A program made the position numbers and the translations under genes. A DNA stretch of 64,000 nucleotides from an uncultured Planctomycetaceae bacterium (GTDB lineage: Bacteria; Planctomycetota; Phycisphaerae; SM23-33). Where the stretch lies: contig CAZLBC010000001.1 in NCBI GenBank assembly GCA_964557575.1, positions 2,296 through 66,295 on the forward strand, written 5' to 3'. The notes beneath the pieces are model-generated. The model searched no databases. It saw only the letters and a list, made by a program, of their open reading frames with translations, and was not told the origin of the DNA. Of this stretch, positions 7,843-47,372 are shown piece by piece (within the stretch, counting starts at the first letter, position 1; each line of letters starts with the position of its first letter).

Positions 7843-7863
7843 ACCTCCTACCCGGTTATCGGC
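7843..7863 (-). promoter_or_regulatory. conserved motif CCGATAA(C/T)..CGGGT(A/G)GGAGG fused to RBS
   Basis: Five occurrences (7843, 16864, 18699, 22995, 47350), each ending in the SD 6-9 nt before a minus-strand start. Confidence 0.4.
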
Positions 7864-7892
7864 TAGCGAGGAAATTATCAGAAGTGATTTTG

Positions 7893-8348
7893 TCAAGAAT
7901 CTTCGAAATCGTCGTCGTGTCGTCCTTCGTGACGCGGTGATTCCGCGCCGAACCACCGGGGGGTCCCGTCGCGCGTCTTGGTGTGCATGAACCCCCATCC
8001 GCCGTCGTTCACGGCGTCGACGATCTGACGAAACGAAACCCACCCGTTTCCGTTCAGCGGCGGAACTTCGCCGTTCAGGATCATGTTCCGGATTTCCGGA
8101 TCGTCCGCGTGGTACGACGCCTCGGGCGTCAAAAGAAACAGGCTTTTCCCGATGTTGGACAAGGTGGGGCGTCCCTGCGCCTTGCGCTGGCGACGGACCT
8201 TGTGCCATATCCCGTTCACTAGAACAGCTTTACCAATATTGTACAGCTTCAAGTGGTGGACCGTAAGCATGTCGTCCGGGTCCCGGTCGTACGGTGTGCC
8301 AGACATTAATTCCAGAATTAAATTTCGTTTAGGTTCCCGTGTTGTCAT
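7893..8348 (-). CDS. hypothetical protein
   Basis: Long ORF, but no clear RBS at any of three candidate ATGs. Confidence 0.35.
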   Translation of the reverse strand: MTTREPKRNLILELMSGTPYDRDPDDMLTVHHLKLYNIGKAVLVNGIWHKVRRQRKAQGRPTLSNIGKSLFLLTPEASYHADDPEIRNMILNGEVPPLNGNGWVSFRQIVDAVNDGGWGFMHTKTRDGTPRWFGAESPRHEGRHDDDFEDS

Positions 8349-8418
8349 TGGAATTGAGCACCGATCCTCGTAAACTGTGAGCAGGGGAATTGATTATTCT
8401 AACTCAAAGGAGCGTGCG

Positions 8419-8559
8419 ATGCGCAGCGAAACCGCCAACCACGACAACATCAATTTTCTGAAATCCGCCCGAGCATTCACAATCACGATGTGGACGATAT
8501 CCATCGCGTCCGTCGTTTTGGGGATCGCCGCGCTCGTTCTCCGGGCGTTCGTCGACTAG
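8419..8559 (+). CDS. small membrane protein (46 aa)
   Basis: AAGGAG lies 6 nt upstream of ATG. Hydrophobic segment WTISIASVVLGIAALVL. Confidence 0.4.
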   Translation: MRSETANHDNINFLKSARAFTITMWTISIASVVLGIAALVLRAFVD

Positions 8560-9929
8560 CTGAAGAACATCCGGCGTATCTGCGTCCGGCGCGATTCCGT
8601 CAACGTCTCTTCGATTTCTTCGTCGTCTTCGTCTTCGTCTTCGTCTTCGTCTTCCGCGTCCACGTCGTCCGGCGGAACGTAGGCGTACGCCCGCTCCGCC
8701 TTCGCCCCGAACTGCGCCAAGAAATCCTCGAAGTCCTTCGAGAATTGTTCCCAGTCGACTTTCGGCTCCATGACGGCCGCCGTCTCGGGTTCCTCGAAAA
8801 GAATCGACTCTGAAACATTCGCGTATTCGCACTCGTCGGAATGCGCTTTGTCGTAGACTTCCCAATCAGCATCCTTGTCTAACCAGTCGTCATCATCGTG
8901 TTCCGTTTCTTTTTCTTCGAAGTCCAAAATCATACTGTCGTTCGAAATGCTTTGAATACCGAACTCAGCCGCGAGTTTGTCTGCCCACCCTTTATAAATC
9001 CTGCTCTTCCGGGGATTGTCGCCAATTCCAAACAGTTTCCATTTAAAACCATCCTCAAGAAGTGCTGGGATAATTTCGTCGTGAACGATCCTGTACACAG
9101 TGTGGAATATCCGGAGTGTTGCGAGTCCAGAGGCTTCTTCATCTGCGTCCCCGAACACGAAATCTTCGGGACCAAAATGAATTTCGTAGTCAAGTGGGCT
9201 TGTTGCGTACCAGCCGTCTCGCTTAACAATAAGTTTGAACTCGCCAACCGGGGTTGAAAACAGGTAATCTGGAAAAACTAATAGACCGTATTGGTTCTTT
9301 GTAACCTCACCCGTTGGTTTCCATGGATAAGGTTTGTCCCCGATCCGTTCAGCAATGCTGTAGTCTTCAAACAACGCGCGAAGAACGAGTTTCCGAGACT
9401 CCTCGACCTTGCCGGGTTTCGGCCGCCCCGCCACGGTGATATGAAATTCAAGCTCCATCCCGTTGTCGGCCGTCGGAAGCGGAGTCAGCCCCAACGACAT
9501 GCGCCTGCGTTGCAATTCCGGGGATTCGATACGGATGAACCAGACGCGGTCCATGGCGTCCCATCCGATCGGGTCGACATCGACCATGTCTTTCAGCCAA
9601 AATTCAAACTGGTCGCCGCCGGTGAGGATCGCGTCTTTCCACCCGTCCCTCCCGTAAACCTTCTGAAGCTCTTCAACCTCGGAAGCGCGGACGACGGTAA
9701 CATGCGGGTTGTCGTAGCGGGGTTCGCACGGAACGCCGTTATACTGCAGAGCTTGAAAAGCGGACGACGGGATTCCCTTGTCGACCTGCAGGAAAGCCCA
9801 TGGTCCGTTGTCGCCTTCCTCGGCCTTCAACGTTCCCGTGAATGTCACGGTTTGCGCCCGGAGTTCCGGCTCCCCGACGTAGGCTTCAACCAGCGAACGG
9901 ACATGCGCGCTCTGGTTTATTCGCATCAT
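8556..9929 (-). CDS. 2H phosphoesterase (LigT/CPDase-like) fused to a C-terminal domain with poly-acidic tail
   Basis: Two H-x-T/S-x motifs (PHVTVV and FHITVAG) about 80 aa apart in the N-terminal 180 aa. The C-terminal DEDEDEDEDEDDEE tail is encoded by a (GTCTTC)n repeat. Confidence 0.6.
   Translation of the reverse strand: MMRINQSAHVRSLVEAYVGEPELRAQTVTFTGTLKAEEGDNGPWAFLQVDKGIPSSAFQALQYNGVPCEPRYDNPHVTVVRASEVEELQKVYGRDGWKDAILTGGDQFEFWLKDMVDVDPIGWDAMDRVWFIRIESPELQRRRMSLGLTPLPTADNGMELEFHITVAGRPKPGKVEESRKLVLRALFEDYSIAERIGDKPYPWKPTGEVTKNQYGLLVFPDYLFSTPVGEFKLIVKRDGWYATSPLDYEIHFGPEDFVFGDADEEASGLATLRIFHTVYRIVHDEIIPALLEDGFKWKLFGIGDNPRKSRIYKGWADKLAAEFGIQSISNDSMILDFEEKETEHDDDDWLDKDADWEVYDKAHSDECEYANVSESILFEEPETAAVMEPKVDWEQFSKDFEDFLAQFGAKAERAYAYVPPDDVDAEDEDEDEDEDDEEIEETLTESRRTQIRRMFFS
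8621..8657. repeat. (GTCTTC)n hexanucleotide repeat
   Basis: Encodes the DE-repeat tail of the 2H phosphoesterase protein. Confidence 0.7.
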
Positions 9930-9939
9930 CGGCCCCCTG

Positions 9940-12282: not shown

Positions 12283-12288
12283 GTCGAA

Positions 12289-13287: not shown

Positions 13288-13337
13288 GGGATAATCCTCC
13301 ATTCCGCAGGACATCATACGCCGGGGCGCGAAATAGA

Positions 13338-13615: not shown

Positions 13616-16477
13616 CTAAAATGGGGCGACCGCAAGTTCCGATTCCGGCAGACGGGACAGGTCGTAAATGTTTGCCTTTTCCGCTTTCTTCGGCTTCGCG
13701 TCGGCGTGATCGCCGAGGTCGACCGGAGCTTCCGCCTTCCGGGAGTTCAACGCGGCGTCGATGTTGCGCGCCTTCTTCGCGATCGTCTCGGCGATGTACG
13801 CGTCCAGCGATTCGTCGACAACGATGTAGTAGCTGTTGACGCATTGCGTTTGCCCGATCCGATTGGCGCGGTCCTCGGCCTGATCGACATCGCCCGGCCG
13901 CCACGGCAGTTCGGCGAAAACGACCGACGTCGCTTCGGTCAGCGTGATTCCTTCCCGGCAGGCTTGGATCGATCCGACGAAGACGCGGATGCCGTCGTCG
14001 TTCTGGAAGCGGTCGATCGACTCCTGCTTGGCCGCGTCGTCCATGCCGCCCTGCACCTGCACGACGCCGTATTCGGAAAGCGCGGCGGCGACTTGGTCCT
14101 GCACGTCGCGGTGATGCGCGAAAACGATTACTTTCTTGTTGCCGGACAGGACCTGATCGGCGAACTCGGCCGCGTGCTTGATCTTCAGCGATCCGATTTC
14201 CGCGCGAAGTTTGCTCATTTCTTCGAACAGGGCCGGGCTTCCCCGCAATTCGGAGATCGCTTCTTCGGCGTTGCCTTCGTTGATGTCTTCGAGCGAAATC
14301 CCGGCGTCCGACAACAGCTTGCGCTGCCGGGCTAGAATCCGCGACGCGCCCTTGACGTCCGACGGGTCCAACCGGACGACAGTGCGAATCTTGCCGGGGA
14401 GTTCCGTCAGGACTTCGGACTTCATCCGGCGCAGCATGAACTTCGAACGCATGATGCGCTGCAATTCATCGAGATTCGTCGCGCCGTCGTCCACCCAGCC
14501 CCAGCGGCCTTGATGCGCGCCGCAGTAACGGCGGGTGTACTTCTTGTAACCGCGACCAAGGCCCTTGGGATCGAGGTGGCGCAGCATCGCGTACAATTCC
14601 TTCGGACGGTTCGGGCAGGGGGTTCCGGTCAGGAAGTAGTTGCGGTTCGCCCGGTGCGCGACGCCTTCGACCTCGCGCCTCTTGCCGGAATCCCAGTAGC
14701 CGAACGCGATTTTCGCGCGGGTGGCCGTCCGGGTGTTCTTTCCGTAGTGGGCTTCGTCCCACACGGCGACGTCCCACGAGTAGTTCATCAGCCCGGGGCG
14801 GACGTTCTTCTGCGACAGGTTCGACCATCCGCAGATAACGAAATTCGCACGGGGGTCAATCGTCTTGTTGCCGTTGACGACTTGGATGGTCCAATCGCCG
14901 ACGAGCCACTTCTCGGCTTCCCGCTTCCAGTTCAGCCGCACGCTGGGCGGACAAACGACCAGCACTTTGCGGACGGACTTGTCGGCGTTGACCGCGCCGA
15001 GGACCTGAATGGTGTTGTGTGTCAGGATCGCGTGTTCCGTAACGTACAATCGGTCGGCGGCGTCAACGGAAATACAAACGCTTTCCACGTCGCGGACGTA
15101 CTCGACAGACTTAACCGTGCGGACGGGGTGCGCGTGTTTTCCGGGGTTGTACTTAGAAACCTTGCGACGGATAGTAAAGGGAGCTATCGTTTTTGGCAGG
15201 CGAATACGCACGGGGTACTCCGTGGGTTTCCCCTCGGAAGATCGATCGTATTCGTGTACAGACGCGATGCCGCCCAAACACTCCACCAGTTCTTGAACAT
15301 CGCAGGCGAGCGACCGGCTCGTCGTGTGATACGTCAGCCGGTTCCGTTCGGCACTGCAGCCGCCATCGCAGTCCATGAGTCCCTGCAACAGAGCGATACG
15401 CTGCGCCGGGGAGGATTCAAGGTACTGACGTGGTATGCGTTTGTCCTTGCTTCCGACGTCCAACCCGAGTTCCCTGATGCTTCTGATCGTTTCAAGAATA
15501 ACCGTGCGCGACGCGTTATCATACGTTTGGATCGCCCCGATTTCCGCCCCTGCCTTGACGATGTTTTCAACTATCTCGTCCAAGTCGGCGGCGTTCACCG
15601 TCGCCACTGCGCTGCTGCCCCTGAGACCCCCGTTCGCTATCAGTACGCCGAGCACGTACGCGGGCACGGGCAGTTCGGCGGCAGCACCAAACCGGGCAGG
15701 TCCAGATAGCATAGGCAACTGCAGCTTCACACCTTCCAAGTTCAGCTTCGTCGCTCTACCCTTCTCGTGCGATAACTCGATAGTCGGCCGATCCAGAAGC
15801 TGCTGGGTAGTTAGCGTCAGGTCGCTCAAGGTTCGCCCCCCGCGCCAGTATTTGACAGTCCACAGGTGCTCTGGACCGGACTCTACGCGGGACTCGTCAC
15901 TGAAGGTAACACGGTAACTTGGCTTCACACCCTGCGGGAACACGCCGACGACGTTCACGGGATGTCCGTCGCTGCCAATGACACGATCGCCCACACGCAG
16001 TGAGCCTATCGTCGTCCACCCGGTCGGTGTCAGCACGTGTGTGTCCACAGGTTGCTGCTTTCCGAGGCCCATGTCGTCGGCCAACAGGACGTCGCTGCTG
16101 TTGACGAGGTACTCAATGCCCGCCTTCTGAAACGGCATGTAAGCGAGTCCCTCGGGGGCCGGGGCGTCGAAGTCGCCGGTCGTGGCGCGGGAGCCGTTGA
16201 TGCGGTCGAGGATCGGCTGCACGAGAGCTTTGACGGCGTCGTCGCAGTAGTCGATCAGCGGCACGCACTTGTCCGCTTGTTTCGCCCGGCAGAACCACGT
16301 GCAAGGGGTGCCGGTTTCAGAGCCGGACTTGTCGAACGCGAACCCGACGCCGCCGCGCTTCCTTGAAAGGGCCGAGACGTCGTTCCAGTACGCGTCGCGT
16401 TCGGCCGGGCTTCCCCGGAAGGCTCCGGACAGTTCCGCGACGATCAGGTTCTTGTCTTTGCTCAGGGTCAGTTTCAT
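13616..16477 (-). CDS. SNF2-family helicase, intein-containing
   Basis: GGAGGACACC RBS. The P-loop LLADDMGLGK-[349 aa]-TIQVLGAV reconstitutes DEMGLGKT. C-terminal helicase motifs are present (DEAHYGKN, LTGTPCPN). Confidence 0.8.
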   Translation of the reverse strand: MKLTLSKDKNLIVAELSGAFRGSPAERDAYWNDVSALSRKRGGVGFAFDKSGSETGTPCTWFCRAKQADKCVPLIDYCDDAVKALVQPILDRINGSRATTGDFDAPAPEGLAYMPFQKAGIEYLVNSSDVLLADDMGLGKQQPVDTHVLTPTGWTTIGSLRVGDRVIGSDGHPVNVVGVFPQGVKPSYRVTFSDESRVESGPEHLWTVKYWRGGRTLSDLTLTTQQLLDRPTIELSHEKGRATKLNLEGVKLQLPMLSGPARFGAAAELPVPAYVLGVLIANGGLRGSSAVATVNAADLDEIVENIVKAGAEIGAIQTYDNASRTVILETIRSIRELGLDVGSKDKRIPRQYLESSPAQRIALLQGLMDCDGGCSAERNRLTYHTTSRSLACDVQELVECLGGIASVHEYDRSSEGKPTEYPVRIRLPKTIAPFTIRRKVSKYNPGKHAHPVRTVKSVEYVRDVESVCISVDAADRLYVTEHAILTHNTIQVLGAVNADKSVRKVLVVCPPSVRLNWKREAEKWLVGDWTIQVVNGNKTIDPRANFVICGWSNLSQKNVRPGLMNYSWDVAVWDEAHYGKNTRTATRAKIAFGYWDSGKRREVEGVAHRANRNYFLTGTPCPNRPKELYAMLRHLDPKGLGRGYKKYTRRYCGAHQGRWGWVDDGATNLDELQRIMRSKFMLRRMKSEVLTELPGKIRTVVRLDPSDVKGASRILARQRKLLSDAGISLEDINEGNAEEAISELRGSPALFEEMSKLRAEIGSLKIKHAAEFADQVLSGNKKVIVFAHHRDVQDQVAAALSEYGVVQVQGGMDDAAKQESIDRFQNDDGIRVFVGSIQACREGITLTEATSVVFAELPWRPGDVDQAEDRANRIGQTQCVNSYYIVVDESLDAYIAETIAKKARNIDAALNSRKAEAPVDLGDHADAKPKKAEKANIYDLSRLPESELAVAPF
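15011..16057 (-). mobile_element. class-3-type intein with LAGLIDADG homing endonuclease in SNF2 P-loop
   Basis: Starts QQPVDTHVLTPTG (Gln at position 1, block A DT). Trp in block B (EHLW), Cys in block F (ESVCISVD) and Thr in block G (ILTHN|T) give the WCT signature. LAGLIDADG motifs YVLGVLIANGG and LLQGLMDCDGG. Confidence 0.7.
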
Positions 16478-16548
16478 GGTGTCCTCCAGTGTTGTGGTCT
16501 TCGGTCCTCGACTCCACCGGAAATCTTATCGTGACCCGGGTTCATGTT

Positions 16549-16596
16549 CAAGAAAAATATCGGGGAGTTTACAAATTTTTTCTCGGAGAAATACAA
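16549..16596. promoter_or_regulatory. promoter-like direct repeat (two units) upstream of SNF2 gene
   Basis: GAAAAATATCGGGGAGTTTACAAA and TTTTTTCTCGGAGAAATACAAA. Confidence 0.45.
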
Positions 16597-16710: not shown

Positions 16711-16848
16711 TTCTTATGTTGAAAGAAAAGGAGTGCTTTCGAAGCGTCCGGGGGCGCGCGGTTTCGGGTCTCCTCGGAAACGCGCGCGCGCCGACAGCGT
16801 CAACGCCATCGCCGCGATCGTCAGTATCGTGAGGAAACCAAGAAACAT
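16711..16848 (-). CDS. small hydrophobic protein (45 aa, MFLGFLTILTIAAMALTL...)
   Basis: Below the ORF-track threshold. GGGAGA lies 6 nt upstream. The conserved CCGATAATACGGGTGG motif lies immediately upstream. Confidence 0.3.
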
Positions 16849-16863: not shown

Positions 16864-16882
16864 TGCGTGTCCACCCGTATTA
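16864..16882 (-). promoter_or_regulatory. conserved motif CCGATAATACGGGTGG upstream of small ORF 16711..16848
   Basis: See 7843. Confidence 0.4.
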
Positions 16883-16904
16883 TCGGATGAATCGCCGGGC
16901 GACT

Positions 16905-17414
16905 TTAGAATAAATCAGGGTTTTCGTTCAATACGTCCTTGTCGAGGTAATCGTCGCCGCGCCAGATTATTTTCTCCGCGTCGTAACTCTCCGGAGAAAG
17001 ATTCGGGTAACCGACGACCTTGTCGGCGCGGGGGTCGAACACGACGCCGGAAACAGCCAGCCAGTAATGTCCGCCGTTTCCGCGATACATCTCAACGGGA
17101 AGCCCGGCACCCTGAAAAACGGGCATCCACTGCGCGCAGGAATCGTACGCGTTGCACCAGTCGCACCGCTGCGACATCTCCGGGTACGCCTGCACGATGA
17201 CCTGTCTCGTGTTCTGGTCGGCGCGGGGATCGATCCAGATTCCGTCCAGCTTTTCCGCCGGATCGAGGTCGATGATTTCCATGGCCGCCGGGTCGACGTC
17301 GAACGCTTCCTCGTCCTCGTCCTCGTCCTCGTCCTTGGTTTCTTCCTCGACGAGGTTCTGTATTTTCTCGGCTTCCAGCAAGAGACGGGCGAGCGCGCTT
17401 TCAGGAATCTTCAT
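16905..17414 (-). CDS. hypothetical acidic protein
   Basis: ORF 16905..17549 trimmed to Met46. Contains a DEDEDEDEE run. Confidence 0.45.
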   Translation of the reverse strand: MKIPESALARLLLEAEKIQNLVEEETKDEDEDEDEEAFDVDPAAMEIIDLDPAEKLDGIWIDPRADQNTRQVIVQAYPEMSQRCDWCNAYDSCAQWMPVFQGAGLPVEMYRGNGGHYWLAVSGVVFDPRADKVVGYPNLSPESYDAEKIIWRGDDYLDKDVLNENPDLF

Positions 17415-17590
17415 TGGTGTGCCTCGCGGATTTTCTGCATGCTCGCCTCCGATTTCCAGTATAGGCAGGGAACCGGACTCCGACAACTGTTTGTCGCCGG
17501 AGTCCGATCCTGCGGGGGCGGGATCAGGGGGAGGGCTGCGGGCGGGCACCCGTAGTATCGGCGCGTCGCCCCCCGGCCCTTTAACCCGAT

Positions 17591-18212: not shown

Positions 18213-18695
18213 TCATTTCGTAGCGGGCTGAAGCGTGTTCGCTTTCACCCATTCGATCCAGATTTCCAGCGTATCCGGATTCGACAGGTCGTATACGGGG
18301 ACTTCGACGGCGTGCGCCGCGCGAATCGCCCAGTATTGCGGCCCGGACCGATACGGGTCCAGCCAAACGACCAGTTCCTCCACGGGATCGTCGCCCTCGA
18401 TGCCGAGCACGGCGGACACGCAGGCTGCGGCGCGCCGCTTGAACCGTTTGGGCATCGCGTCAATCGACGCGTCAAGCTGCAACATCCGCTCGTCCGCCCA
18501 CTTCTTGGCGTACTTGCCCTTGTAGATTTCGAACGTTCCGCCGACACGTCGCGCTCCGTCCTCGAACGGACCGTCTCCGACGCCGTCGCTGATTCGCAGC
18601 TTCTTGGCGACTCCGAAAACGCGCCCGATCCCGCGCATTACGTTCTGAACAACGACAGGGGCCATCGGCCCCGACAATCCGGCGTAGCTTTTCAT
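18213..18695 (-). CDS. hypothetical protein
   Basis: TAGGAGG RBS preceded by the conserved CCGATAATACGGGTAGGAGG motif. Confidence 0.6.
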   Translation of the reverse strand: MKSYAGLSGPMAPVVVQNVMRGIGRVFGVAKKLRISDGVGDGPFEDGARRVGGTFEIYKGKYAKKWADERMLQLDASIDAMPKRFKRRAAACVSAVLGIEGDDPVEELVVWLDPYRSGPQYWAIRAAHAVEVPVYDLSNPDTLEIWIEWVKANTLQPATK

Positions 18696-18698: not shown

Positions 18699-18718
18699 CG
18701 TCCTCCTACCCGTATTAT
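18699..18718 (-). promoter_or_regulatory. conserved motif CCGATAATACGGGTAGGAGG
   Basis: See 7843. Confidence 0.45.
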
Positions 18719-18925
18719 CGGCACGAGGACTGAAATTTGATAAGGCTTTCCGTTATTTTCCACCAAGAAACATTCCGAGAACCTGCCGAATTATCGGTCC
18801 GGTGATCATCCCGCCGTGTTTTTTGATCATGTCCATGGCGTGTTTTCGCTTCTCGGGGGCGGCGTTGCGCAGTTTTCCCCACAACCACCGAGACCATGCG
18901 CGCTGCCGGTTTTGGCCGTCTTCGT

Positions 18926-19875: not shown

Positions 19876-19926
19876 TTGAAAGTCCTCCGCGCATAATCAT
19901 ACACGCACGGAGAGCTTCGACGCAAG

Positions 19927-21463: not shown

Positions 21464-21538
21464 TGCTTGTCCTCCAGTTCCGGTTTGTTCGGTCCTCGAC
21501 TCCACCGGACAGTCTACAGGAGAGGCAAACGGCATGCA

Positions 21539-21585
21539 AGAAAAACATCGGGAAGTTTACAAATTTTTTATCGGGGAGTTACCCG
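21539..21585. promoter_or_regulatory. promoter-like direct repeat (two units) upstream of gene 20759..21463
   Basis: AAAAACATCGGGAAGTTTACAAA and TTTTTTATCGGGGAGTTACCC. Confidence 0.45.
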
Positions 21586-21971: not shown

Positions 21972-22387
21972 TCAGGAGGGTCTCCAGACAACGGGATGTC
22001 GCGATCGAGGTACGCCGTAGCGGTTTGCCAGTATTTCCAGAACCGCTTTCGCCCGGCCGTGTCGGTCACGTGGTCCCCCGTCGAGAACTTCGCGTAGTAC
22101 ACTCCGCCGAGCGTCTCTTGGAAAACCGTCAGGTTGTCGTCGCGCACGTACGGCTTACTCGCGTACCCGAGAGTATGGTGCCACTGAACCCAGTGGTCCG
22201 GAAGCACTAAACCCATCGTTCGCATGTATGTTTTCGGTTTGTTTTCAACGTCCGCGATCGCGGCGTCCAACGCTTCAAGCTGGTTAAGAACGGCCGCGTC
22301 GGCCGTATCGCGCAAGAGGCGTACGAGCGAATCGTACGCCTCTCGAACACGCGGAAGTCTTGTCTTGAAATCAGTCATCGCTTTCAT
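21968..22387 (-). CDS. hypothetical protein
   Basis: Start ambiguous (Met58, Met62 or Met65). All lie inside the 3' end of the upstream gene. Confidence 0.4.
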   Translation of the reverse strand: MKAMTDFKTRLPRVREAYDSLVRLLRDTADAAVLNQLEALDAAIADVENKPKTYMRTMGLVLPDHWVQWHHTLGYASKPYVRDDNLTVFQETLGGVYYAKFSTGDHVTDTAGRKRFWKYWQTATAYLDRDIPLSGDPPE

Positions 22388-22994: not shown

Positions 22995-23015
22995 CCAAGT
23001 CCACCCCCTTTTTAT
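22995..23015 (-). promoter_or_regulatory. variant motif CCGATAAAAAGGGGGTGG
   Basis: See 7843. Confidence 0.3.
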
Positions 23016-23053
23016 CGGATACAAACCGGAACAACATGAGGAAAAATCCGAAA

Positions 23054-35458: not shown

Positions 35459-38400
35459 TTACGCCTCCCTGTTCTGAATCATTTCCCGGACCTTTTTAAG
35501 CGTCGACTCCTGATAGGTCATCGCGCCGTCGACGGTCGGAGTCAACAGTGTACCGACCTGCTCGTCCTGCATGCAATTCCAAACCGCGCCGCACACGGAG
35601 TCTGAAACATCCTTGCTGTTGTGCACAAAAACCCCGACCGAAAGAGCGAAATTATTCCACTCGTCGACTTCAAGGTCGTAGACGGGAACCGGCTCGTCCA
35701 GAGTAACCGGAATAACGTACCGGACTCGATGGTTGTCGCCGGTTTCATCAGCCAAGTACCGGTCCCGGCTTTCGTACCCGCCATTACGTGGAAACTGACG
35801 AGTTATCGGCATCAACCGGTCCCGCACGGGTACGAGGTCTTTGGCGCGCTTATACGAACCGTCTCGGAGCATCCATAGGTGTTCCGGAGTGCACCGAGCA
35901 ACCGCGCCGTTGTCGAGTATCACGTCAATCAGGTTCTTCGTGGTCTTCGTTTTACGCCCGCGCGCCCAACCGGCGACGATACTCCCGTCAGGCCGTGCGG
36001 AATAGACCCATCCTTCCCAACCGTCCAATTCCGAAATCCGGCGACACGTCCCGTCAAGCAGCGGGATTCGGGTGTCACCCGTAAAACAACCGCCCGGAGG
36101 GTGATCAATCTTGTCTTCGTCAGTCAACTCCAACGCGAGCAACTCGTCCTCAAGAACCTCGTGTTTCGGCCATGTAATCCGGTTCTCGTTCAGGATTGTT
36201 TTGAAAACATAATACTGTTCCGGACGCCTGTCGAGCGTCAGATACCCGGCTTCGATCCGGGACTTCTTCAGGTATTGAATTTCCCCCTGACCGGCCGGAG
36301 AGTCGTACGTTACTTTTCGGAGGACGAAGTTTTTCTCTTTCAGCCACAGGATGAAATCGCGGATTTTCTCCCAGTCCACTTCGTCCGTGTCAGGCGTGAT
36401 CTGAAGCGCGAAGTCGACCTCTATCGTCAACTCCGTACGCCGGTCGTAGTGTCCGGTGTCGGTACGGACCTGCCGCGAAACGGCTTTCGTCGGGTGGACC
36501 ATCGCGACGCCGACGGCGTCGCCGTTTCGCGAAATGTCAACATGGATGTACCGGGGGGAGTGCGGCATGCGTTTCGGGACGTCGCGGGAAGATCGAACCG
36601 TAAGGAACTCTTCGCGGAGAACGTAGTCCTGAATGCGGTCCGGGCGTTGAAGGTCGATCTTCATCGGACAGTCCCAGCGCGCTCCCATCCCGGCAACGAA
36701 CGGGTGCGGAAGAACGGCCTCCCCGTCGTTCTCCCACTCGACGGAAGCCTCTATAATCGGCTGGCCGCGAGGGAAGAACGGATTGATCGCTTCCGACGGT
36801 ATCCCGGCGATGTCGCGCAGGGAACCGATCGGGTCTTCGTTGAACGCGCGGAAATCCTCCACCGGGACGTCAATAGTGCGAACGCCGCGCGGAGGATTTC
36901 CTCCCTTCTTGATGCGAAACTGTCCGAATCCAAGGTTTTCCACGCCGTCGAGACAATGCGGCTTCACGAATTTGTTGCCGACAACAAATCGAAACGTCAA
37001 CCCCGATTCCCGCCGTCCGGATTTCGGCTGAAATTCCCACTGCGGGCCGCCGACGACGTGCACGTTCCGGTTGTTGGCAACCTCGCGCTTCCGAATTTCC
37101 AAGTACGAGTTTGACGCCTTCGTGGACGAAATGTGAATGATCATGCCGGACGTCGCGAACCGCGATTCCATGCGCCGGGAAGTTTGCTGGACGAGGCTGT
37201 GGACCTTCCCCTTCTCTTCCAACGTCTTGGCCTTCTTCTGCTTCTTCGTCTGCATGTGGAAGTTCATTTCGTCGATGGCCAGACAAAACAGGTTGTGTCC
37301 AAGAACGTGAAAAGCAGCGGAACCGATCATAAACTTAATATTCTTGGGGAAATGCAGTTCGCTGTACTGCTCCTTGTACCAGAACTTCTCCTTGAAATAC
37401 GGCGACTGGTCCAGAAGACCGAGAAGCGTCGACATTCCGACATCCGTCAATCTCAACGTCGCGTTGTAAATACCGAAGACGATCGGAGACCCCTTGGACA
37501 ACCCGTGGTATCCGGCGGGATCGCGCAGGCAGGACAACTGATAAAGTTTGAAGATCATCATGACCATGGAATTGAACGTGTTGTGACTCATGAATCCGTC
37601 GGAAACGTAACTCGGGTCGTCCTCCACCGACAAGTCGTAGCAGTGCGCGTGATCGTCGTCCACGGTTTCGACCGTATCAAATAGCAGGTGTCCTCTGGCG
37701 ATAGCGCACAGAACGTCAGGAAGCGTTCCCGCCGCATCCAAGACCTCGTTCAAGAGCCGTCTGGTTGCACGTTGTTTAACGAGGCGTCTCAGGAGCCGGG
37801 ACGGTCCCTTGCGCTTTTCGTACCCGTCTGGAGCCTCTCCGCGTTTGTGCCGGGGCTGCATCTTTCGAAGTTCAGCGACGCATGTCTCAGGAATCCTGAA
37901 CGAAAACGAGTGATCACAGTTTCGGTTCCACCGGGAAGCCCGTTCGATCAAAGCCGCTTGTTTCCGGTCGTGGTAGTGACCAATCTGCGCGGCGAACTTT
38001 GCTTGAGAGTCCGTACCGACAACCCGAACGGTATACGCCCGCCCTGTAACGTAACGAGTGCCTGCGTCAGTATACGCGGCTTCCTTTGACGTAACCGAAC
38101 AGTACATTCCGAGCGACGTCAAAAGAACCCGAACCTGACGCGCTAATTGCTCAGACGTTGTCGTGAGGGAACAGTCCGAATCGCCGCTGTACCCGTCGCC
38201 CGAGAACAAACCCCTGAGATACGCGCAAACTCCCGCTCGGCTGCTTCTGAAAACAACTGGAGGAATCGTGCGGGTCCCGCTTTTTTGACCTTCGCCTTCT
38301 CGAAGAACCGAATCCGGTCTTGGTTTAATCGTGAACTCTTTTGAAAACTCAGACCGTGCATCTCGGCTTCGTTCGTGAACCCACTCGATTCCAAGTTCTT

Positions 38401-39172
38401 CCCGAACGAAATCAAAAAGGTTCAAAACATAATCGTATTCCTCTTCGTGTACGCTTACTCGTGCATACCTGACGTCTGGTGTCCAACAACCTTCAGCCGT
38501 TTCCCAACCGAGGGCTTCCATCGCTCCTTCCGAAAAACCTGAATTTGTCGGGAAAGCGTACGGGTATTCCAGAACACAATCGCCTTCGACCAAGTCTTCC
38601 AACGCCACCCATTCGACGTCAAGCCCTCGAAGAACACGAATACGGTGGTTCGGTCGGCCTTCAAATACGTGTCCGTGTTTTGTAGTCACTTTCTTAGTTG
38701 AAGTCAGTCCTTCGTTGTGATACTCGGAAATCGGACAGTACCCTGACTCAGTCAGAACCTCGACGTTCATCCTGTTATCGACAATATCTTCGATTGGAAT
38801 CATCCCGCGAGACGTCGAGATCAGCGTACCTCTTCGGCTACACTTCCCGATTCCAATTCCGCCATCGATGATCACTTCGTTGATCTGATTCCTCGGGTCG
38901 AACGTCGTCAACAATTCCTTTTGCCATCGCGGCCAGATGTCCACGCCGCCGAGGTAGTACGGATTCGTGATAAACTCGTCGATTCCGACCGGAGGCTCGT
39001 CGTAGTCCATCTGCGTAATAAAATCCCGGGACAGCGACTTGCCGCTGTTCCGCAGCGATTCTTCAATTCCGCGAATCGCCCACGTCTTTTCACTGTCCGA
39101 CAACGAATCGAAAAACCGAAGGACTTCCGAGTCGAGCTTCGCCAGCGCAGCGCGAATTTGGTCGACGTTCAT
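35459..39172 (-). CDS. terL: terminase large subunit containing two inteins
   Basis: Walker A GGIGIGK-[intein]-TFNSM reconstitutes GIGKT. ATPase and nuclease regions are present. Position is upstream of the portal gene. Confidence 0.8.
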   Translation of the reverse strand: MNVDQIRAALAKLDSEVLRFFDSLSDSEKTWAIRGIEESLRNSGKSLSRDFITQMDYDEPPVGIDEFITNPYYLGGVDIWPRWQKELLTTFDPRNQINEVIIDGGIGIGKCSRRGTLISTSRGMIPIEDIVDNRMNVEVLTESGYCPISEYHNEGLTSTKKVTTKHGHVFEGRPNHRIRVLRGLDVEWVALEDLVEGDCVLEYPYAFPTNSGFSEGAMEALGWETAEGCWTPDVRYARVSVHEEEYDYVLNLFDFVREELGIEWVHERSRDARSEFSKEFTIKPRPDSVLREGEGQKSGTRTIPPVVFRSSRAGVCAYLRGLFSGDGYSGDSDCSLTTTSEQLARQVRVLLTSLGMYCSVTSKEAAYTDAGTRYVTGRAYTVRVVGTDSQAKFAAQIGHYHDRKQAALIERASRWNRNCDHSFSFRIPETCVAELRKMQPRHKRGEAPDGYEKRKGPSRLLRRLVKQRATRRLLNEVLDAAGTLPDVLCAIARGHLLFDTVETVDDDHAHCYDLSVEDDPSYVSDGFMSHNTFNSMVMMIFKLYQLSCLRDPAGYHGLSKGSPIVFGIYNATLRLTDVGMSTLLGLLDQSPYFKEKFWYKEQYSELHFPKNIKFMIGSAAFHVLGHNLFCLAIDEMNFHMQTKKQKKAKTLEEKGKVHSLVQQTSRRMESRFATSGMIIHISSTKASNSYLEIRKREVANNRNVHVVGGPQWEFQPKSGRRESGLTFRFVVGNKFVKPHCLDGVENLGFGQFRIKKGGNPPRGVRTIDVPVEDFRAFNEDPIGSLRDIAGIPSEAINPFFPRGQPIIEASVEWENDGEAVLPHPFVAGMGARWDCPMKIDLQRPDRIQDYVLREEFLTVRSSRDVPKRMPHSPRYIHVDISRNGDAVGVAMVHPTKAVSRQVRTDTGHYDRRTELTIEVDFALQITPDTDEVDWEKIRDFILWLKEKNFVLRKVTYDSPAGQGEIQYLKKSRIEAGYLTLDRRPEQYYVFKTILNENRITWPKHEVLEDELLALELTDEDKIDHPPGGCFTGDTRIPLLDGTCRRISELDGWEGWVYSARPDGSIVAGWARGRKTKTTKNLIDVILDNGAVARCTPEHLWMLRDGSYKRAKDLVPVRDRLMPITRQFPRNGGYESRDRYLADETGDNHRVRYVIPVTLDEPVPVYDLEVDEWNNFALSVGVFVHNSKDVSDSVCGAVWNCMQDEQVGTLLTPTVDGAMTYQESTLKKVREMIQNREA
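35618..36088 (-). mobile_element. intein 2 (mini-intein) in terminase C-terminal domain
   Basis: CFTGDTRIPLLDG start, block B CTPEHLWM, ends VGVFVHN|S. 157 aa with no endonuclease domain. Confidence 0.7.
37580..38842 (-). mobile_element. intein 1 (LAGLIDADG-type) in terminase P-loop
   Basis: CSRRGTLIST start, block B TKHGHVF, LAGLIDADG-like AMEALGWETAEG and AYLRGLFSGDGY, ends SHN|T. Confidence 0.7.
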
Positions 39173-39173
39173 G

Positions 39174-40241
39174 TCACTCCCCCAGTTGCTTCCTGCGGAT
39201 AATCTTCTTGAGGTGGCGCGGAACCGGCCATTCGAGAAGCATCGAAACGACTTCGTTTATTTCTTGCCAAGTCGCGTCGGGGAACCGCCGCTTCAACCAC
39301 TTCGTATCCGCGCCCAGCGCAGCGAAAGCCCACACCTTGTCCAACCTCGGAACACCTGTCGGAGAACCGACGACGTCCAAAAGCGTGGCGGGGGTGTGCG
39401 ACCGGCAAACGGCGTTCATCCGAAGACTGTGGTGGATCACGTTCGACACCAAGTTGTTCCGTGTCCTCCATTTCTGGACGCGCTGACATCCGCAACCCAT
39501 GACTCGCGCGATTTCGCCGTCCGACCATCCGTCAGCCCACATCTTACGGAAAAACTTTTCGTCCATCCCGAATTTACGCTGCTTCCCGGTCGGAACGCCT
39601 AATTTTCGAAGCCACCGCTTCAACGTGGACTTCGCGACTCCGACGCGTTCCGCGAGTTCCGCGTCGGACATCATCATTCCGCGATCCAAAACCAGTTTCC
39701 TTACCTGCTGCCCCACGGAAACGAACAAAAAGTCCCGGGCCTGCTGCGGGTCGCGGTTCATCCCGAGTTCGGACCGGAGTTTGACAACCGTCGTCTTGGC
39801 GCGTCCCACGGCTTCCGCCAGTTCCCTGTTGCTCAAATGCGGGTTTTCCGTCAGCACCCGTTGTATCTTGTTCCGCAGACGGGTTCGTGCGGCTTTCGAC
39901 CGTTTCGTCGCGACGCCGAGCTTGCGCCGTATGTACGACATCATATCACGCGACACGCCGAGAACCTCGGCTGCTGTTTTACATTTTGCTTTCGGGTTGT
40001 CCGCCATAAACCGCTTGTACCGCTCGCACAATTCGTCCATCTGCGCCGCCGTTCGTTTCGCCGGGCGTCCGACGCGAATGCGAATGACGGATACGTCGGA
40101 CTGGCTGATCATCAAGGCTTCGGCTATTTCAGGGTTCGGGGCGTCCGGGTGTTCATCCAAATAGTCAACCACCGCCTGCCGAAGTCGTTTCGTTTCCGCT
40201 TTCGTGCGACGTTTCTTCTTCTTCTTCTTCTTGCGCGCCAT
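39174..40241 (-). CDS. DNA-binding protein with five tandem HTH repeats (putative terminase small subunit)
   Basis: AGGAGG RBS. N-terminal poly-Lys from a (AAG)n run. Repeated HTH-like units ending ...RKLG or ...ELG. Located directly upstream of terL. Confidence 0.45.
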   Translation of the reverse strand: MARKKKKKKKRRTKAETKRLRQAVVDYLDEHPDAPNPEIAEALMISQSDVSVIRIRVGRPAKRTAAQMDELCERYKRFMADNPKAKCKTAAEVLGVSRDMMSYIRRKLGVATKRSKAARTRLRNKIQRVLTENPHLSNRELAEAVGRAKTTVVKLRSELGMNRDPQQARDFLFVSVGQQVRKLVLDRGMMMSDAELAERVGVAKSTLKRWLRKLGVPTGKQRKFGMDEKFFRKMWADGWSDGEIARVMGCGCQRVQKWRTRNNLVSNVIHHSLRMNAVCRSHTPATLLDVVGSPTGVPRLDKVWAFAALGADTKWLKRRFPDATWQEINEVVSMLLEWPVPRHLKKIIRRKQLGE

Positions 40242-40959
40242 CTTCCGGGGCCTCCTGCACTGGAACGTCAATGACGGGTCCGTCCGGCCCGGCGGAAACC
40301 AAATCGGACCTACCGGCTCCTTCCAAAGCCTTCCAGAACTCGCGCAACCGGTCCCGGGATCGCGGGGATTCCGGAGGTTCGGGCGCGTCGGGATCGTGTT
40401 CGAATATGTTGATAACCGTGTTTGTCTGGTTGAAAAGCTCGTCGACTCCCTTGTTCCGGTCGACGGACATTTTCTTGACGTAGTCCAACGCTTCGCTCAT
40501 CGACTTTTCCATGATCTGGTAGACCTTGGCGAGATTACTGTCGGACATGTCGGCCAAGCGTGCGGGGTCGAGGAGGAGTTCGCGGATGTCTTCCAGTTGT
40601 TCGTACAGCGTGCCGACGGTTTGGATGCGTCGAACGGCAAACAGGTTCAGCGCGACCCGAAATCGCGCGTCGTGGTCCTTCAACAGGTTGTGAATGACCT
40701 GCTGCGCGATGTTGTCGATCTGGTCGTCGGACAGAATATTGCGAACGACGGTGTCCGTAATGGCGGGCATCGAGTCAGGATCGGACAAGTCAAGGAGATT
40801 CAGGTCTTCGCTCGGCGACACCGCACCGTACTTTTCCTGAAACTCCTCCATCGACATCCCGTGCTTCTGCCGGAGATGCGTGTTCGTGATCCGCTTCATC
40901 GACTGCCCGCATATCGGACACTCAATCAGCCTTCGCGCTTTCTTCTTCTTCTTTGCCAT
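40165..40959 (-). CDS. zinc-finger protein (CPICGQ...HLRQKH)
   Basis: Overlaps both neighbours. Both the 3' end and the start are uncertain. Confidence 0.35.
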   Translation of the reverse strand: MAKKKKKARRLIECPICGQSMKRITNTHLRQKHGMSMEEFQEKYGAVSPSEDLNLLDLSDPDSMPAITDTVVRNILSDDQIDNIAQQVIHNLLKDHDARFRVALNLFAVRRIQTVGTLYEQLEDIRELLLDPARLADMSDSNLAKVYQIMEKSMSEALDYVKKMSVDRNKGVDELFNQTNTVINIFEHDPDAPEPPESPRSRDRLREFWKALEGAGRSDLVSAGPDGPVIDVPVQEAPEDGAQEEEEEETSHESGNETTSAGGG

Positions 40960-41476
40960 GTTTCCAACCGAAATTCATCGACTTTTCAAGGTGCGCCACC
41001 CGCCGCCGGATTTCCCGGTCGTCGACTCCGCTCCGCTCGGCGAGAACGCCGACGGGAACTCCCCTATGGTATTCCTTCAGAATGTCGACATTCCGGATCG
41101 CGGCTTTCACCGCACCGATAGTCGGAAACTTGACGGAAAGTCCGCCGAAAATTTCAATGATCCGAAGGAATTTCTCAGGGCCGATGATTTGGAGGATTTC
41201 CGGACAAAGATCGAACGGATCAATTCCGACAAGGGCCAATGACAAAGACTCGCCGTCGATAGTCGGCGAGTCTTTGTCTTGGTTCCCGGAACGGAACACG
41301 GCTTCCGCGACTTGTGTCAGCTTCACCGCTCGCGATCCGTCGATTTCATGTACGTGCGCCATGTTCGCGGAATCCGGCTTCGACCCGGATTCCAAGTGCG
41401 CCATCGCTTCGTTCAATGCTTCACGAAACTGGCCGCCATGGCGTATTTCGAGGGTTTCACGCGATTTTTCCACCAT
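40922..41476 (-). CDS. Mor-like transcriptional activator
   Basis: ILQIIGPEKFLRIIEIFGGLSVKFP matches the Mor-family core; a C-terminal HTH follows. Start uncertain. Confidence 0.45.
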   Translation of the reverse strand: MVEKSRETLEIRHGGQFREALNEAMAHLESGSKPDSANMAHVHEIDGSRAVKLTQVAEAVFRSGNQDKDSPTIDGESLSLALVGIDPFDLCPEILQIIGPEKFLRIIEIFGGLSVKFPTIGAVKAAIRNVDILKEYHRGVPVGVLAERSGVDDREIRRRVAHLEKSMNFGWKHGKEEEESAKAD

Positions 41477-45482: not shown

Positions 45483-45703
45483 TCGGAGTCTTCCTTTTCA
45501 GTTTCATTCCGCAGTTCGGCGCAGCGTGAACACACAAGGTTTCCGTTCGCGTCTTCCTCGGCGCACGCGTCGCAAATCGTCGCGCCGCATTCGCACTCCG
45601 TGATGTCGCCTTTGTACACGACTGCGCCGCAACCGACACACTCGGCGTCATCCGGCCCGATGTCATGCGGGTTCGGTTCGATGTAATCATCAGGATACGT
45701 CAT
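45479..45703 (-). CDS. Cys-rich small protein
   Basis: Trimmed to ATG 7 nt after GGAGG. Eight Cys in 74 aa. Confidence 0.5.
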   Translation of the reverse strand: MTYPDDYIEPNPHDIGPDDAECVGCGAVVYKGDITECECGATICDACAEEDANGNLVCSRCAELRNETEKEDSE

Positions 45704-46424
45704 CTTCACGCCTCCACTCAAAATGATGAAACATTCCGCCGTCCTGCTTGTGCTGGCGGAGCTTCGCCGCGACTTGCCTGCCCAAACCCGTCAGCTTGAA
45801 CACCGGGTTGACCCCGGTTCCATCCCATATCAAGAGACCTTCGGCCTCGGCGTCCTTGCAACAGGACCAGTCGTCGTGACCGTACAAATCGATCGACGAC
45901 GCGCCGCCTTGTCCCTCGAGACGCGTCGGATGCTCTTTGTCCCCGCAACGCGCCGTCGGGATTCCGGCCCCGTGGCAGGTGTTCCGCATGTGCTGCGGAT
46001 TGGCGACGCCCCCGTAATCGACGACCCGGGTCTCGATGTACGCGAATGTCGACCAGTGGTCTTTTCCCCACATCTCGACCGGAATCTGCGTGAATCCGCT
46101 GGCGAGGCGTCGAAAGCGGCCGTCGACACCGTACCCGTAACCGACGGGAACCTTGATGTAATCCCGGTGGTCCACGCGGTCGACAAAAACAACCGGCGCG
46201 CCACAGGACGGACACGGCTTCCCGCTCGCGAAACGCGAATACGCTCCGCGCGTCGGCGCGTCGGCGGACCGAGTGAGCTTCCGGCCGCAAAGCGTGCATT
46301 TATAGTGCGCCATCTCCGCGCGGCCGTAAAGCCGGATGCGCTTCATCTTCGGCTTGGGAAGCCGCCAGTTGGCCGGTTCCGCCGTTTTCAACTGAAACGT
46401 CCCGGTTTCGCTCTTGTCGCGCAT
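45690..46424 (-). CDS. hypothetical protein with zinc-ribbon motifs
   Basis: GGAGGA RBS; ATG one codon after GTG. Contains CTLCGRK...CPSCG. Confidence 0.5.
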   Translation of the reverse strand: MRDKSETGTFQLKTAEPANWRLPKPKMKRIRLYGRAEMAHYKCTLCGRKLTRSADAPTRGAYSRFASGKPCPSCGAPVVFVDRVDHRDYIKVPVGYGYGVDGRFRRLASGFTQIPVEMWGKDHWSTFAYIETRVVDYGGVANPQHMRNTCHGAGIPTARCGDKEHPTRLEGQGGASSIDLYGHDDWSCCKDAEAEGLLIWDGTGVNPVFKLTGLGRQVAAKLRQHKQDGGMFHHFEWRREDDVS

Positions 46425-46702
46425 CACGTGTCCTCCGGTCCCATCGGGGTTCCAACGGGAGGGAACCCCAATTCCTCTTGTACGTCAACGACATTCTTCG
46501 CAATCCGCTGAAGAAGGGTTTGCCCGCACGCCGAACAGTACACTTCATACTGTTCAACATCTTTTCCCTTGATCCGCCCCACGCTCTTGACCTTGAGCCG
46601 GTGTTCCCGGATCGCGCAACCGCACACGCCGCAGGCTTTTCGCATCTGCGCGGTTACCGGCTCGACGCTGGCCAAAAATCCTTTCGGGAACTCAAGCGAC
46701 AT
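46424..46702 (-). CDS. zinc-ribbon protein
   Basis: CGVCGC...CSACG. GGAG RBS. Confidence 0.5.
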   Translation of the reverse strand: MSLEFPKGFLASVEPVTAQMRKACGVCGCAIREHRLKVKSVGRIKGKDVEQYEVYCSACGQTLLQRIAKNVVDVQEELGFPPVGTPMGPEDT

Positions 46703-46703
46703 G

Positions 46704-47336
46704 TCAACTCCACAAAAGCTCTTTCATCGTGTGCCACTTCTTCTCGATCGCTTCCAATTCTTCGACGCGCGCCTTCAACTGATCGGCTTCCGCGAGTTTC
46801 CGCTGTTGGGCCGCCGTTGCGCCCTTGACGAACTCCTGCGCCTCGGCGAGCGCGGCCTTCGACTGGTCCAACTCTTCCCGCAACTCAGCGTTTTCCGCGT
46901 AAAGCGTGTTCAAAGACGACATCAAGTGGTCGATCACGGAAAGTTCCGCCGCGTTGTCGACGCCCTTATCGGATTCCGCGCTTTCAAGGAACCGGTTCGC
47001 CTTGTTCATCGCCCTGTTCATCGCGCGGTACTGGCGAAGGTCCCGCGTGTCCCGGAGATTGAATTTACGTGCGACGTAATTCAACGTCCCGAGCGTGTCC
47101 ATGCGCGGATCGCACACGATGGAATCGTCGCCGTTGTCTTTGGCCCCGGGGCCATGGTCGCTCACGCGGATCGAAAACAACAGGGTTCCGTTGTCCGTGT
47201 ACGCATGAAGATATATCGATCCGCGTTCGGAACGATGCTCCGTGCATTCCATCTTCCACACGTACTTAATGTACTCGCGGCACTTGTCCGCCGCTGCTTC
47301 AACTTGCTCTTGGGTCGGCTTGTCGTGTACGCTCAT
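46704..47336 (-). CDS. hypothetical coiled-coil protein
   Basis: Trimmed to Met6 behind GGAGGAC. Motif 2 lies upstream. Confidence 0.55.
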   Translation of the reverse strand: MSVHDKPTQEQVEAAADKCREYIKYVWKMECTEHRSERGSIYLHAYTDNGTLLFSIRVSDHGPGAKDNGDDSIVCDPRMDTLGTLNYVARKFNLRDTRDLRQYRAMNRAMNKANRFLESAESDKGVDNAAELSVIDHLMSSLNTLYAENAELREELDQSKAALAEAQEFVKGATAAQQRKLAEADQLKARVEELEAIEKKWHTMKELLWS

Positions 47337-47349
47337 AAAAATGTCCTCC

Positions 47350-47372
47350 ACCCGGTATATCGGGTAGAGGAC
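47350..47372 (-). promoter_or_regulatory. variant motif CCGATATACCGGGTGGAGGAC
   Basis: See 7843. Confidence 0.35.

Follow-up and report, generated by a model that had tools for sequence, protein, structure and literature searches.

Eight copies of an intergenic motif in a large T4-like phage, probably the -10 regions of sigma-28-class promoters with hairpin gating of translation

The 64,000-nucleotide (nt) stretch of DNA considered here, called the window below, covers positions 2,296 to 66,295 of contig CAZLBC010000001.1 (assembly GCA_964557575.1, filed as an uncultured Planctomycetaceae bacterium) and belongs to a T4-like phage that is large (about 198 kb) and divergent. Its G+C content is about 58% (42% A+T), and nearly all of its genes lie on the minus strand. 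A short motif that appeared to be fused to the Shine-Dalgarno (SD) sequence of the following gene had been described at five places in this DNA. We propose that phage promoters of the sigma-28 (FliA/SigD/WhiG) class, at least eight in number, have this motif as their -10 region and are probably combined with hairpins that gate translation, and we give this reading a probability of roughly 0.65. As a class assignment made from sequence, it rests on two independent promoter elements together with the position, strand, and base composition of the copies.

All five copies in the preliminary description are present, within a few bases of where it placed them. Its consensus, CCGAUAAUACGGGU(A/G)GGAGG, matches only one of them (18702-18721), even when three mismatches are allowed, and because the search with this 20-mer gave a single match, the consensus was redefined. 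The common core is CCGATA, followed by 2 to 5 nt, (C)GG[GT]T, and a purine. Defined in this way, the motif occurs eight times in the window rather than five; the first C of each copy, on the minus strand, is at 7862, 16886, 17561, 18721, 23018, 47363, 50354, and 58899. Every copy is intergenic and on the coding (minus) strand, and the plus strand has none. Dinucleotide shuffles give an expectation of 0.2-0.5 copies on both strands together, with a maximum of 2-3, but the core pattern was composed after the copies had been seen, so that the excess is indicative and does not amount to a clean P value. Sense intergenic DNA (6.95 kb) contains the hexamer CCGATA by itself 14 times, compared with about 1.6 expected from composition, and the hexamer is absent from the antisense intergenic strand. 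The copies cease to be identical where the box ends, and their flanks show no relation, which points to selection on the box itself. Further CCGATA hexamers were tried as members of the same promoter class and set aside, as they match the -35 octamer introduced below at only 2-4 of 8 positions; three of these lie in the "first motif" cassettes described below (1746, 16563, and 21574), and the others are at 52975, 50780, and 18797, the first of which belongs to a different repeat, TCTTTGAmAAyC. The small open reading frame (ORF) behind the 16886 copy, noted earlier as 45 amino acids (aa) long, is indeed in the sequence. Read from its second ATG (16848) it has 44 aa, begins with MFLGFLTILTIAAMALTLSARARF..., and has a hydrophobic N-terminus; its coordinates are 16714-16848, and it lies upstream of a gene for an SNF2 helicase.

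The window encodes a candidate sigma factor whose nearest specific relatives are FliA and WhiG, and this prompted a comparison of the motif with the promoters that those factors read. The sigma-28 promoter consensus is TAAAGTTT-n11-GCCGATAA (PMC2859248). In the fliC promoter of Pseudomonas aeruginosa, the -10 element is GCCGATAA, from -15 to -8, with its GC acting as an extended -10; the A at -11 is flipped out, and position -7 is not conserved, unlike in sigma-70 promoters (PMC12784957). The copies in the window, which we letter A to H (Table 1), follow this pattern closely. Agreement with the octamer is 8 of 8 in two copies, 7 of 8 in four, and 6 of 8 in two, the sequences being GCCGATAA and TCCGATAA twice each and GCCGATAC, GCCGATAT, CCCGATAT, and TCCGATAT once. 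The bases C-14, C-13, G-12, A-11, T-10, and A-9 are invariant throughout, while -8 and -7 vary, the latter being T in four copies, A in three, and C in one.

Since the copies were found without use of the -35 element, that element provides an independent test. Only the literature octamer, TAAAGTTT, was looked for, at spacers of 10-13 nt. The eight copies match it at 7, 7, 6, 6, 5, 5, 4, and 3 of 8 positions, a mean of 5.4 compared with 3.0 over all intergenic positions (Monte Carlo P<1e-5). Further upstream, the DNA between -60 and -31 is 60-72% A+T, well above the genome average. When sigma-28 numbering is applied, transcription is predicted to start at the base right after the conserved CGGGT, 8 nt past the octamer, and this base is a purine in seven of the eight copies, with a T before it in five. 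The predicted 5' end falls 0-3 nt before GGAGG in copies A, C, E, and F, which would explain why the motif seemed to be fused to the SD. The SD had been taken as the last bases of each copy, and this holds for 7862, 18721, and 47363, as well as for the newly found copy at 50354, but not for 16886 and 23018. Past the predicted start, the SD is 13 nt away at 16886, 26 nt at 23018, 21 nt at 58899, and 121 nt at 17561. The related suggestion that GATAAT is a -10 element with the transcript starting at the SD was supported for the box, which is a sigma-28-class -10 octamer with a matching -35, and for the predicted start in four copies, but it is not general. Two other promoter readings were rejected. 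For sigma-70 promoters, there is no consistent TTGACA-like -35 and a consensus scan flagged one copy only, and for N4-type hairpin promoters read by a phage RNA polymerase, no such polymerase was seen among the window proteins.

The likely reader of the eight promoters, judged by its sequence relationships, is the 177-aa protein encoded near the left end of the window. It matches phrog_1740, annotated as "RNA polymerase sigma factor" (E 4.8e-12), TIGR02937, the general sigma-70 family model of NCBIfam and the only one there whose cut-off it passes (46.6 bits vs a cut-off of 42.9), and, in Pfam, Sigma70_r2 (33.6 bits, above threshold) and, weakly, Sigma70_r4. Its best relative of solved structure in the Protein Data Bank is FliA (E 0.004). 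In P. aeruginosa FliA, Y76, R80, D87, and R90 have been reported to stack on A-11 and to contact -13/-12, and R97 to read the extended -10 (PMC12784957). An HMMER alignment to FliA, over a 7-bit segment, places F, R, D, R, and D of the phage protein opposite these five residues, and four of the five are compatible. AlphaFold models the protein with low confidence (pLDDT 57) and leaves residues 78-125 unstructured. The gene is preceded by a terminator and a sigma-70-like promoter, TTGAAC-N16-TACTAT, and is probably expressed early.

As the phage is T4-like, with a gp20-type portal and Rad50/SbcD-like (Rad50/Mre11-like) genes, the boxes could in principle be late promoters of the T4 type, recognized by a gp55-like sigma in concert with the sliding clamp, and the hairpin geometry described below is that of T4 gene e. 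We regard this as scarcely credible. The box differs from TATAAATA, the copies have a -35 partner that T4 late promoters lack, and the sigma factor of the window shows no similarity to T4 gp55 (E 3.8) and has a region-4 match. A T4 late or middle promoter reading was ruled out on the same grounds, with no TATAAATA and no gp55 similarity.

A second layer of the element became apparent when 40-nt stretches around each box were folded and compared with shuffles. The z-scores are -5.8 (E), -3.9 (C), -2.7 (A), -2.4 (F), -2.1 (B), -1.4 (H), -0.7 (G), and -0.3 (D), and in five to six copies the box is at the tip of a hairpin that is specific to that copy. The 5' arm sits in the promoter spacer and varies from copy to copy (GUCCUCUACCCG in E, CCUC.CUA.CCG in A, UUCAUCCG in B), and in A, C, E, and H the native 5' flank is better than 1000 random genomic 12-mers (P no higher than about 0.02). 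The SD is part of the 3' arm in A, C, E, and F, where the 5' arm is an anti-SD. The consequence for the ribosome-binding site was estimated by folding a long RNA that starts 80 nt upstream and a short one that starts at the predicted +1. From long to short RNA, the probability that the SD is unpaired rises from 0.01 to 0.21 in A, from 0.20 to 0.78 in C, from 0.00 to 0.49 in E, and from 0.05 to 0.39 in F; in E, the energy needed to open the SD drops from 19.4 to 1.8 kcal/mol. The SD is more strongly paired in these four genes than in 49 controls, other genes of the window that have a good SD (Mann-Whitney P 0.003), and the difference also holds for all eight motif-bearing genes (P 0.026). Hairpins of this kind probably gate translation.

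It was also suggested earlier that the motif might be a binding site for a protein, or an RNA structure, controlling translation initiation. Taken further, the element could act as RNA, in the form of a hairpin operator (CCG-AUA..-CGG) to which a phage protein would bind in order to repress translation or direct cleavage, comparable to the operators of the MS2 coat protein, T4 gp43, and RegA. The significant hairpins in five to six copies, the SD within the stem in four, and the conserved bases flanking the loop on both sides are all in keeping with such an operator. Loop length (5-9 nt), stem register, and bulges differ among the copies, however, and RNAalifold on all eight returns a consensus of 6 pairs at -2.1 kcal/mol with no positive covariation term, which argues against an operator recognized by a protein. 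An operator would also not account for the four copies with a distant SD, nor for the enrichment of the -35 octamer 10-13 nt upstream, on the hairpin's edge or beyond it, and no Rfam family matches at the motif sites, the only Rfam matches in the window being transfer RNAs (tRNAs) and transfer-messenger RNA (tmRNA). We therefore consider the RNA operator very unlikely and keep from the earlier suggestion the hairpins that pair the SD with the 5' arm, as a layer added to the promoter.

Hairpins with different loops that sequester an SD are found elsewhere on the minus strand, at 19876-19926, 54292-54356, 59387-59443, and about 29200-29260. The one before the start at 19875 reads CUCUCCGUGCGUGU-AUGAUU-AUGCGCGGAGGA, and before the start at 59386 there is a terminator with the SD as its 3' arm, overlapped by TTGACA-N17-CATACT. 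These cases, at starts 19875, 54291, and 59386, suggest that the SD-sequestering hairpin is a general design in this phage.

Under the promoter reading, the proposed sequence of events would be as follows. The sigma factor encoded at 123-656 would be made early, from its sigma-70-type promoter, and RNA polymerase carrying a sigma-28-like sigma, most likely this one, would bind the box. The DNA would melt at the invariant A(-11), and the transcript would start at the purine after CGGGT, so that in A, C, E, and F the mRNA would begin at its SD. In five to six promoters, the spacer DNA 5' of the box is complementary to the DNA 3' of it. Transcripts reading through from upstream genes would then fold with the box at the tip, burying the SD in the 3' arm in four cases, while those started at the box would have no 5' arm and hence be translatable. 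The hairpin may also attenuate read-through. A broader proposal, which we offer as possible yet doubtful, is that this phage of about 198 kb runs part of its program with its own compact, two-domain, FliA-like sigma that reads GCCGATAA promoters, each set in a hairpin. Such a 45-bp cassette would silence read-through, by masking of the SD and perhaps by attenuation, and launch translatable transcripts, and the sigma could escape the host anti-sigma FlgM and switch on the host sigma-28 regulon.

Several observations weigh against the promoter reading or against parts of it. The distance between -35 and -10 ranges over 10-13 nt instead of being fixed at 11, a value seen in one copy only, and copies 7862 (A) and 47363 (E) have no recognizable -35. 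The conserved CGGGT is absent from the published sigma-28 consensus and would be accounted for only by the hairpin or by the context of the start site. We infer the start sites and the dependence on sigma from sequence. Hairpins are weak or absent at 23018 (D) and 58899 (G), and in B, D, G, and H the SD is not sequestered, so gating cannot be what every copy is for. None of the collections searched held a close relative of the phage. As for the sigma factor itself, the 7-bit alignment does not show the equivalent of R97, the reader of the extended -10, to be kept, Pfam gives no match to region 3, and the protein scores 39.5 bits against the FliA/WhiG model TIGR02479, far under the cut-off of 189.6; by these measures it is no bona fide member of the FliA/WhiG family.

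The last points bear on a different account of the same sigma-28-class promoters, in which they are read by sigma-28 (FliA/SigD/WhiG) of the host. The genes behind them would then be tied to the motility or developmental state of the host, and the phage sigma would serve another promoter set. The box is very close to the bacterial consensus, being identical to it in two copies, and the phage sigma, besides its low FliA/WhiG score, seems to be without region 3, the part of sigma-28 that reads the GC of the extended -10. Non-motile cells have no sigma-28, and for a lytic phage this would be a risky dependency. Host sigma-28 is also normally held by the anti-sigma FlgM (PMC12784957). In addition, a phage sigma with FliA as its nearest specific relative is encoded in the same window. 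On balance, a host reader seems unlikely to us, and we favor the phage sigma as reader of the promoters.

Table 1. Positions of the candidate sigma gene, the eight promoters and their hairpins, and other features of the window
Feature	Position	Strand	Details
Candidate sigma factor	123..656	minus	Phage-encoded, sigma-70 family, 177 aa
Promoter A	7848..7863	minus	-10 GCCGATAA 7856-7863; predicted +1 G 7848, first base of GGAGG; best -35 TTCTGATA, 3/8, spacer 12; gene 7348-7836
Promoter B	16872..16907	minus	-35 TAAAGTCG 16900-16907, 6/8, spacer 12; -10 TCCGATAA 16880-16887; predicted +1 G 16872; 44-aa ORF 16714-16848
Promoter C	18707..18740	minus	-35-like TCAAATTT 18733-18740, 6/8, spacer 10; -10 GCCGATAA 18715-18722; discriminator TACGGGT; predicted +1 A 18707; gene 18213-18695
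Promoter D	23004..23039	minus	-35 weak, TCATGTTG, 5/8, spacer 12; -10 TCCGATAA 23012-23019; predicted +1 G 23004; gene 22371-22964
Promoter E	47349..47364	minus	-10 CCCGATAT 47357-47364; predicted +1 G 47349, first base of GGAGG; best -35 TCATGAAT, 4/8, spacer 12; gene 46704-47336
Promoter F (new copy)	50340..50374	minus	-35 TAACGTTT 50367-50374, 7/8, spacer 11; -10 TCCGATAT 50348-50355; predicted +1 G 50340; gene 50037-50324
Promoter G (new copy)	58885..58921	minus	-35 TAATGTTT 58914-58921, 7/8, spacer 13; -10 GCCGATAT 58893-58900; gene 58353-58850
Promoter H (new copy)	17547..17583	minus	-35 TAAAGGGC 17576-17583, 5/8, spacer 13; -10 GCCGATAC 17555-17562; predicted +1 G 17547
Hairpin A	7844..7871	minus	CCUC.CUA.CCG-AUAAC-CGG.UAG.GAGG; SD in 3' arm; z -2.74
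Hairpin B	16865..16895	minus	UUCAUCCG-AUAAUA-CGGGUGGA plus outer GCG/CGC; SD outside; z -2.12
Hairpin C	18700..18730	minus	GUCCUC.UGCC-loop-GGUA.GAGGAC; SD (GGAGG) in 3' arm; z -3.85
Hairpin E	47343..47372	minus	Perfect 12-bp stem GUCCUCUACCCG-AUAUAC-CGGGUGGAGGAC, then AUUUUUAUG; terminator-like; sequesters SD; z -5.77
Hairpin F	50330-50365	minus	z -2.44
Hairpin H	17538-17573	minus	z -1.44
"First motif" cassettes	1-122, 1700-1760, 6300-6480, 16500-16580, 21500-21578	minus	
Repeat TCTTTGAAAAYC	53338-53349, 54913-54924, 58316-58327, 63909-63920, 52974-52985	minus	
Ribonucleotide reductase with HNH intein	2527-6231	minus	
SNF2 helicase with LAGLIDADG	13616-16477	minus	
1237-aa protein with LAGLIDADG and intein splicing domain	35459-39172	minus	
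Free-standing HNH genes	49059-49634 and 61464-62564	minus	
DNA-binding protein with several helix-turn-helix domains	39174-40271	minus	
Ros/MucR-type zinc-finger protein	40165-40959	minus	27 bits vs cut-off 25.4
Weak Mor-like match	40922-41362	minus	Below threshold

The gene behind promoter D encodes a nucleoside 2-deoxyribosyltransferase-like protein. A terminator-like hairpin (23048-23062) lies just upstream of this promoter, whose own local hairpin is not significant (z -0.34). Promoter H is followed by a leader of about 130 nt and then by the gene 16905-17414. Behind promoter G, the tmRNA gene (57853-58315, minus strand; Rfam RF00023, 88.9 bits) begins 37 nt after the gene listed in Table 1.

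The distribution of the copies raises the question of whether they are mainly mobile regulatory or recombination cassettes, or terminator or attenuator hairpins, spread by duplication beside ORFans in the manner of the PeSL elements of RB49 and phi1 and conserved by descent rather than by sigma recognition. Three cassettes are found in a 4.3-kb block of about eight small unknown genes between the DUF6011 and helicase genes. In L045, the one syntenic relative that was read (helicase 51% identical), these two genes adjoin, with only a 52-aa ORF between them. A U-run follows hairpin E, a terminator-like hairpin precedes D as noted, and PeSLs are likewise stem-loops that overlap a -10 box and are followed by an SD (PMC2839356). 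On the other hand, a pure terminator or recombination cassette leaves unexplained why identity stops at the box edges, most of the hairpins lack a U-tract, and mobility is compatible with promoter function instead of being an alternative to it. We give the mobile-element explanation a slim chance at best.

L045 offers a limited view of the box in the wider clade. Of its seven sense-strand CCGATA hexamers, five precede a gene start or the 5' end of the tmRNA by 21-54 nt (binomial P of about 1e-5), but their -35 matches are weak, at 4-5 of 8, so that they give only a hint of clade-wide use of the box. L045 also has a tmRNA, and in it GCCGATAT starts 22 nt (CCGATA 21 nt) before the tmRNA 5' end. 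Of the relatives found through the 160-aa protein, the portal, and the helicase, with identities of at most 61% (portal) and 42% (helicase), none has the motif. In a protein search, the SNF2 helicase has an identical copy on a 198-kb contig, and its next-best homologue anywhere is 51% identical. An exact-match scan of IMG/VR with CCGATAATACGGGTRG gave 16 contigs with a single match each, which looks like chance and yielded no relative, and contigs carrying P0004, P0007, and P0011 turned out to be unrelated phages.

Two other repeated elements were observed in the window. The "first motif" is a sigma-70-like cassette with aaaTTTGTAAACtccCCGATAtttttCTTGAA, 17 nt, TAnnnT, and a conserved 5' untranslated region. 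It often follows a strong terminator and lies upstream of the genes for ribonucleotide reductase, the helicase, the DUF6011 protein, and others; one example, TTGAAC-N17-TAAGAT at about 16500-16563, comes after a terminator. The relative L052, whose sigma is 60% identical, has the same cassette with a hairpin in the spacer. The second element, TCTTTGAAAAYC, is present in three exact copies and two with one mismatch, immediately upstream of the tmRNA and of tRNA-like sequences left uncalled by ARAGORN, such as the one at 53232-53337, whose end reads ...CCCGCACCA. The repeat could serve RNA genes, possibly ones with insertions, as a signal for processing or as a promoter signal.

The window holds 23 tRNA genes in addition to the tmRNA gene. 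One of these, at 59444-59516 on the minus strand, has a CUA anticodon (an amber suppressor, named tRNA-Pyl by ARAGORN), and the long ORFs read normally in table 11. Weak Rfam tRNA matches at 57533-57639 and 50598-50674 are not called by ARAGORN, and a (GT)n microsatellite of about 24 nt occurs at 57600-57700 (minus strand), in an RNA-rich spacer with the tmRNA on one side and a tRNA-like sequence on the other. The genes for ribonucleotide reductase and the SNF2 helicase are split by inteins. A cluster of possible transcription regulators is seen at 39174-41362 on the minus strand (Table 1). At the right end of the window (62565-64000), G+C falls to about 0.50, and the adenine/DNA methyltransferase-like gene found there (62837-63820) may be a recent acquisition.

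With the promoter reading, an anonymous repeat becomes a regulatory map of an uncultivated large phage, made up of at least eight promoters, their predicted starts, and a candidate sigma, and the map implies a likely switch from early to later expression. If the phage sigma does read GCCGATAA, it would be a minimal sigma with sigma-28 specificity, useful for studying recognition of the -10 and extended -10 by a protein that has no region 3, and it would raise the question of cross-talk between the phage and the flagellar regulon of its host.

Among known systems, the closest in sequence are the sigma-28 promoters of bacteria. The copies share with them a -10 octamer matched at 6-8 of 8 positions, an invariant A-11 and a variable -7, a -35 of the TAAAGTTT type at a similar spacing, and a start that we place 8 nt past the octamer. 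They differ in that the genes are those of a phage, with unknown or nucleotide-metabolism functions and not flagellar or developmental ones, in the variable spacers and the additional conserved CGGGT between -10 and +1, and in a candidate sigma that looks like a short two-domain protein and not a canonical three-domain sigma-28. The proposed role of this protein resembles that of the middle and late sigmas of SPO1 and of T4 gp55, in that an early phage sigma would redirect the host RNA polymerase to a set of phage promoters. Such redirection to phage-specific promoters is described for SPO1 (PMC13401047) and for T4 gp55 (PMC3014915). Here, in contrast, the promoter class is the widespread bacterial sigma-28 class, and the link between sigma and promoters is a predicted one.

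The hairpins have their nearest counterpart in the T4 genes e, soc, 49, and I-TevI, whose early read-through transcripts hide the ribosome-binding site in a helix, while transcripts from the late promoter lack the 5' strand and are translated (PMC3014915). When the leader of T4 gene e was folded in this work, the TATAAATA box came to lie at the hairpin tip, with AGGAGG 3 nt downstream in the 3' arm. The same arrangement of an anti-SD 5' arm, a promoter box at the tip, and an SD a few bases further on in the 3' arm is seen in the phage, and there too translation is predicted to be open only to transcripts that begin at the box; A, C, E, and F have the SD paired with a 5' arm located upstream of the internal start, whereas B, D, G, and H do not. 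The promoter is different, with GCCGATAA and a -35 here and TATAAATA without a -35 in T4, and in the phage a single conserved cassette is found at several genes, with the SD buried in only four of eight and the gating a prediction. The likeness suggests that placing a promoter within a hairpin that masks the ribosome-binding site, the trick of T4 gene e, goes back further and is more widespread in T4-like phages than the few T-even cases indicate. Finally, the PeSLs of RB49/phi1-type phages consist of an AT-rich region, an early promoter of sigma-70 consensus, a stem-loop overlapping the -10 box, and then an SD (PMC2839356). Promoters of the sigma-70 type are present in the phage as well, in the "first motif" cassettes. 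The motif is likewise a short conserved intergenic cassette with AT-rich DNA upstream and a stem-loop over the -10, followed by an SD and start codon, and it too lies beside small unknown genes in variable regions. In place of the sigma-70 promoter of the PeSLs, it has one of another sigma class, without a TTGACA-like -35.

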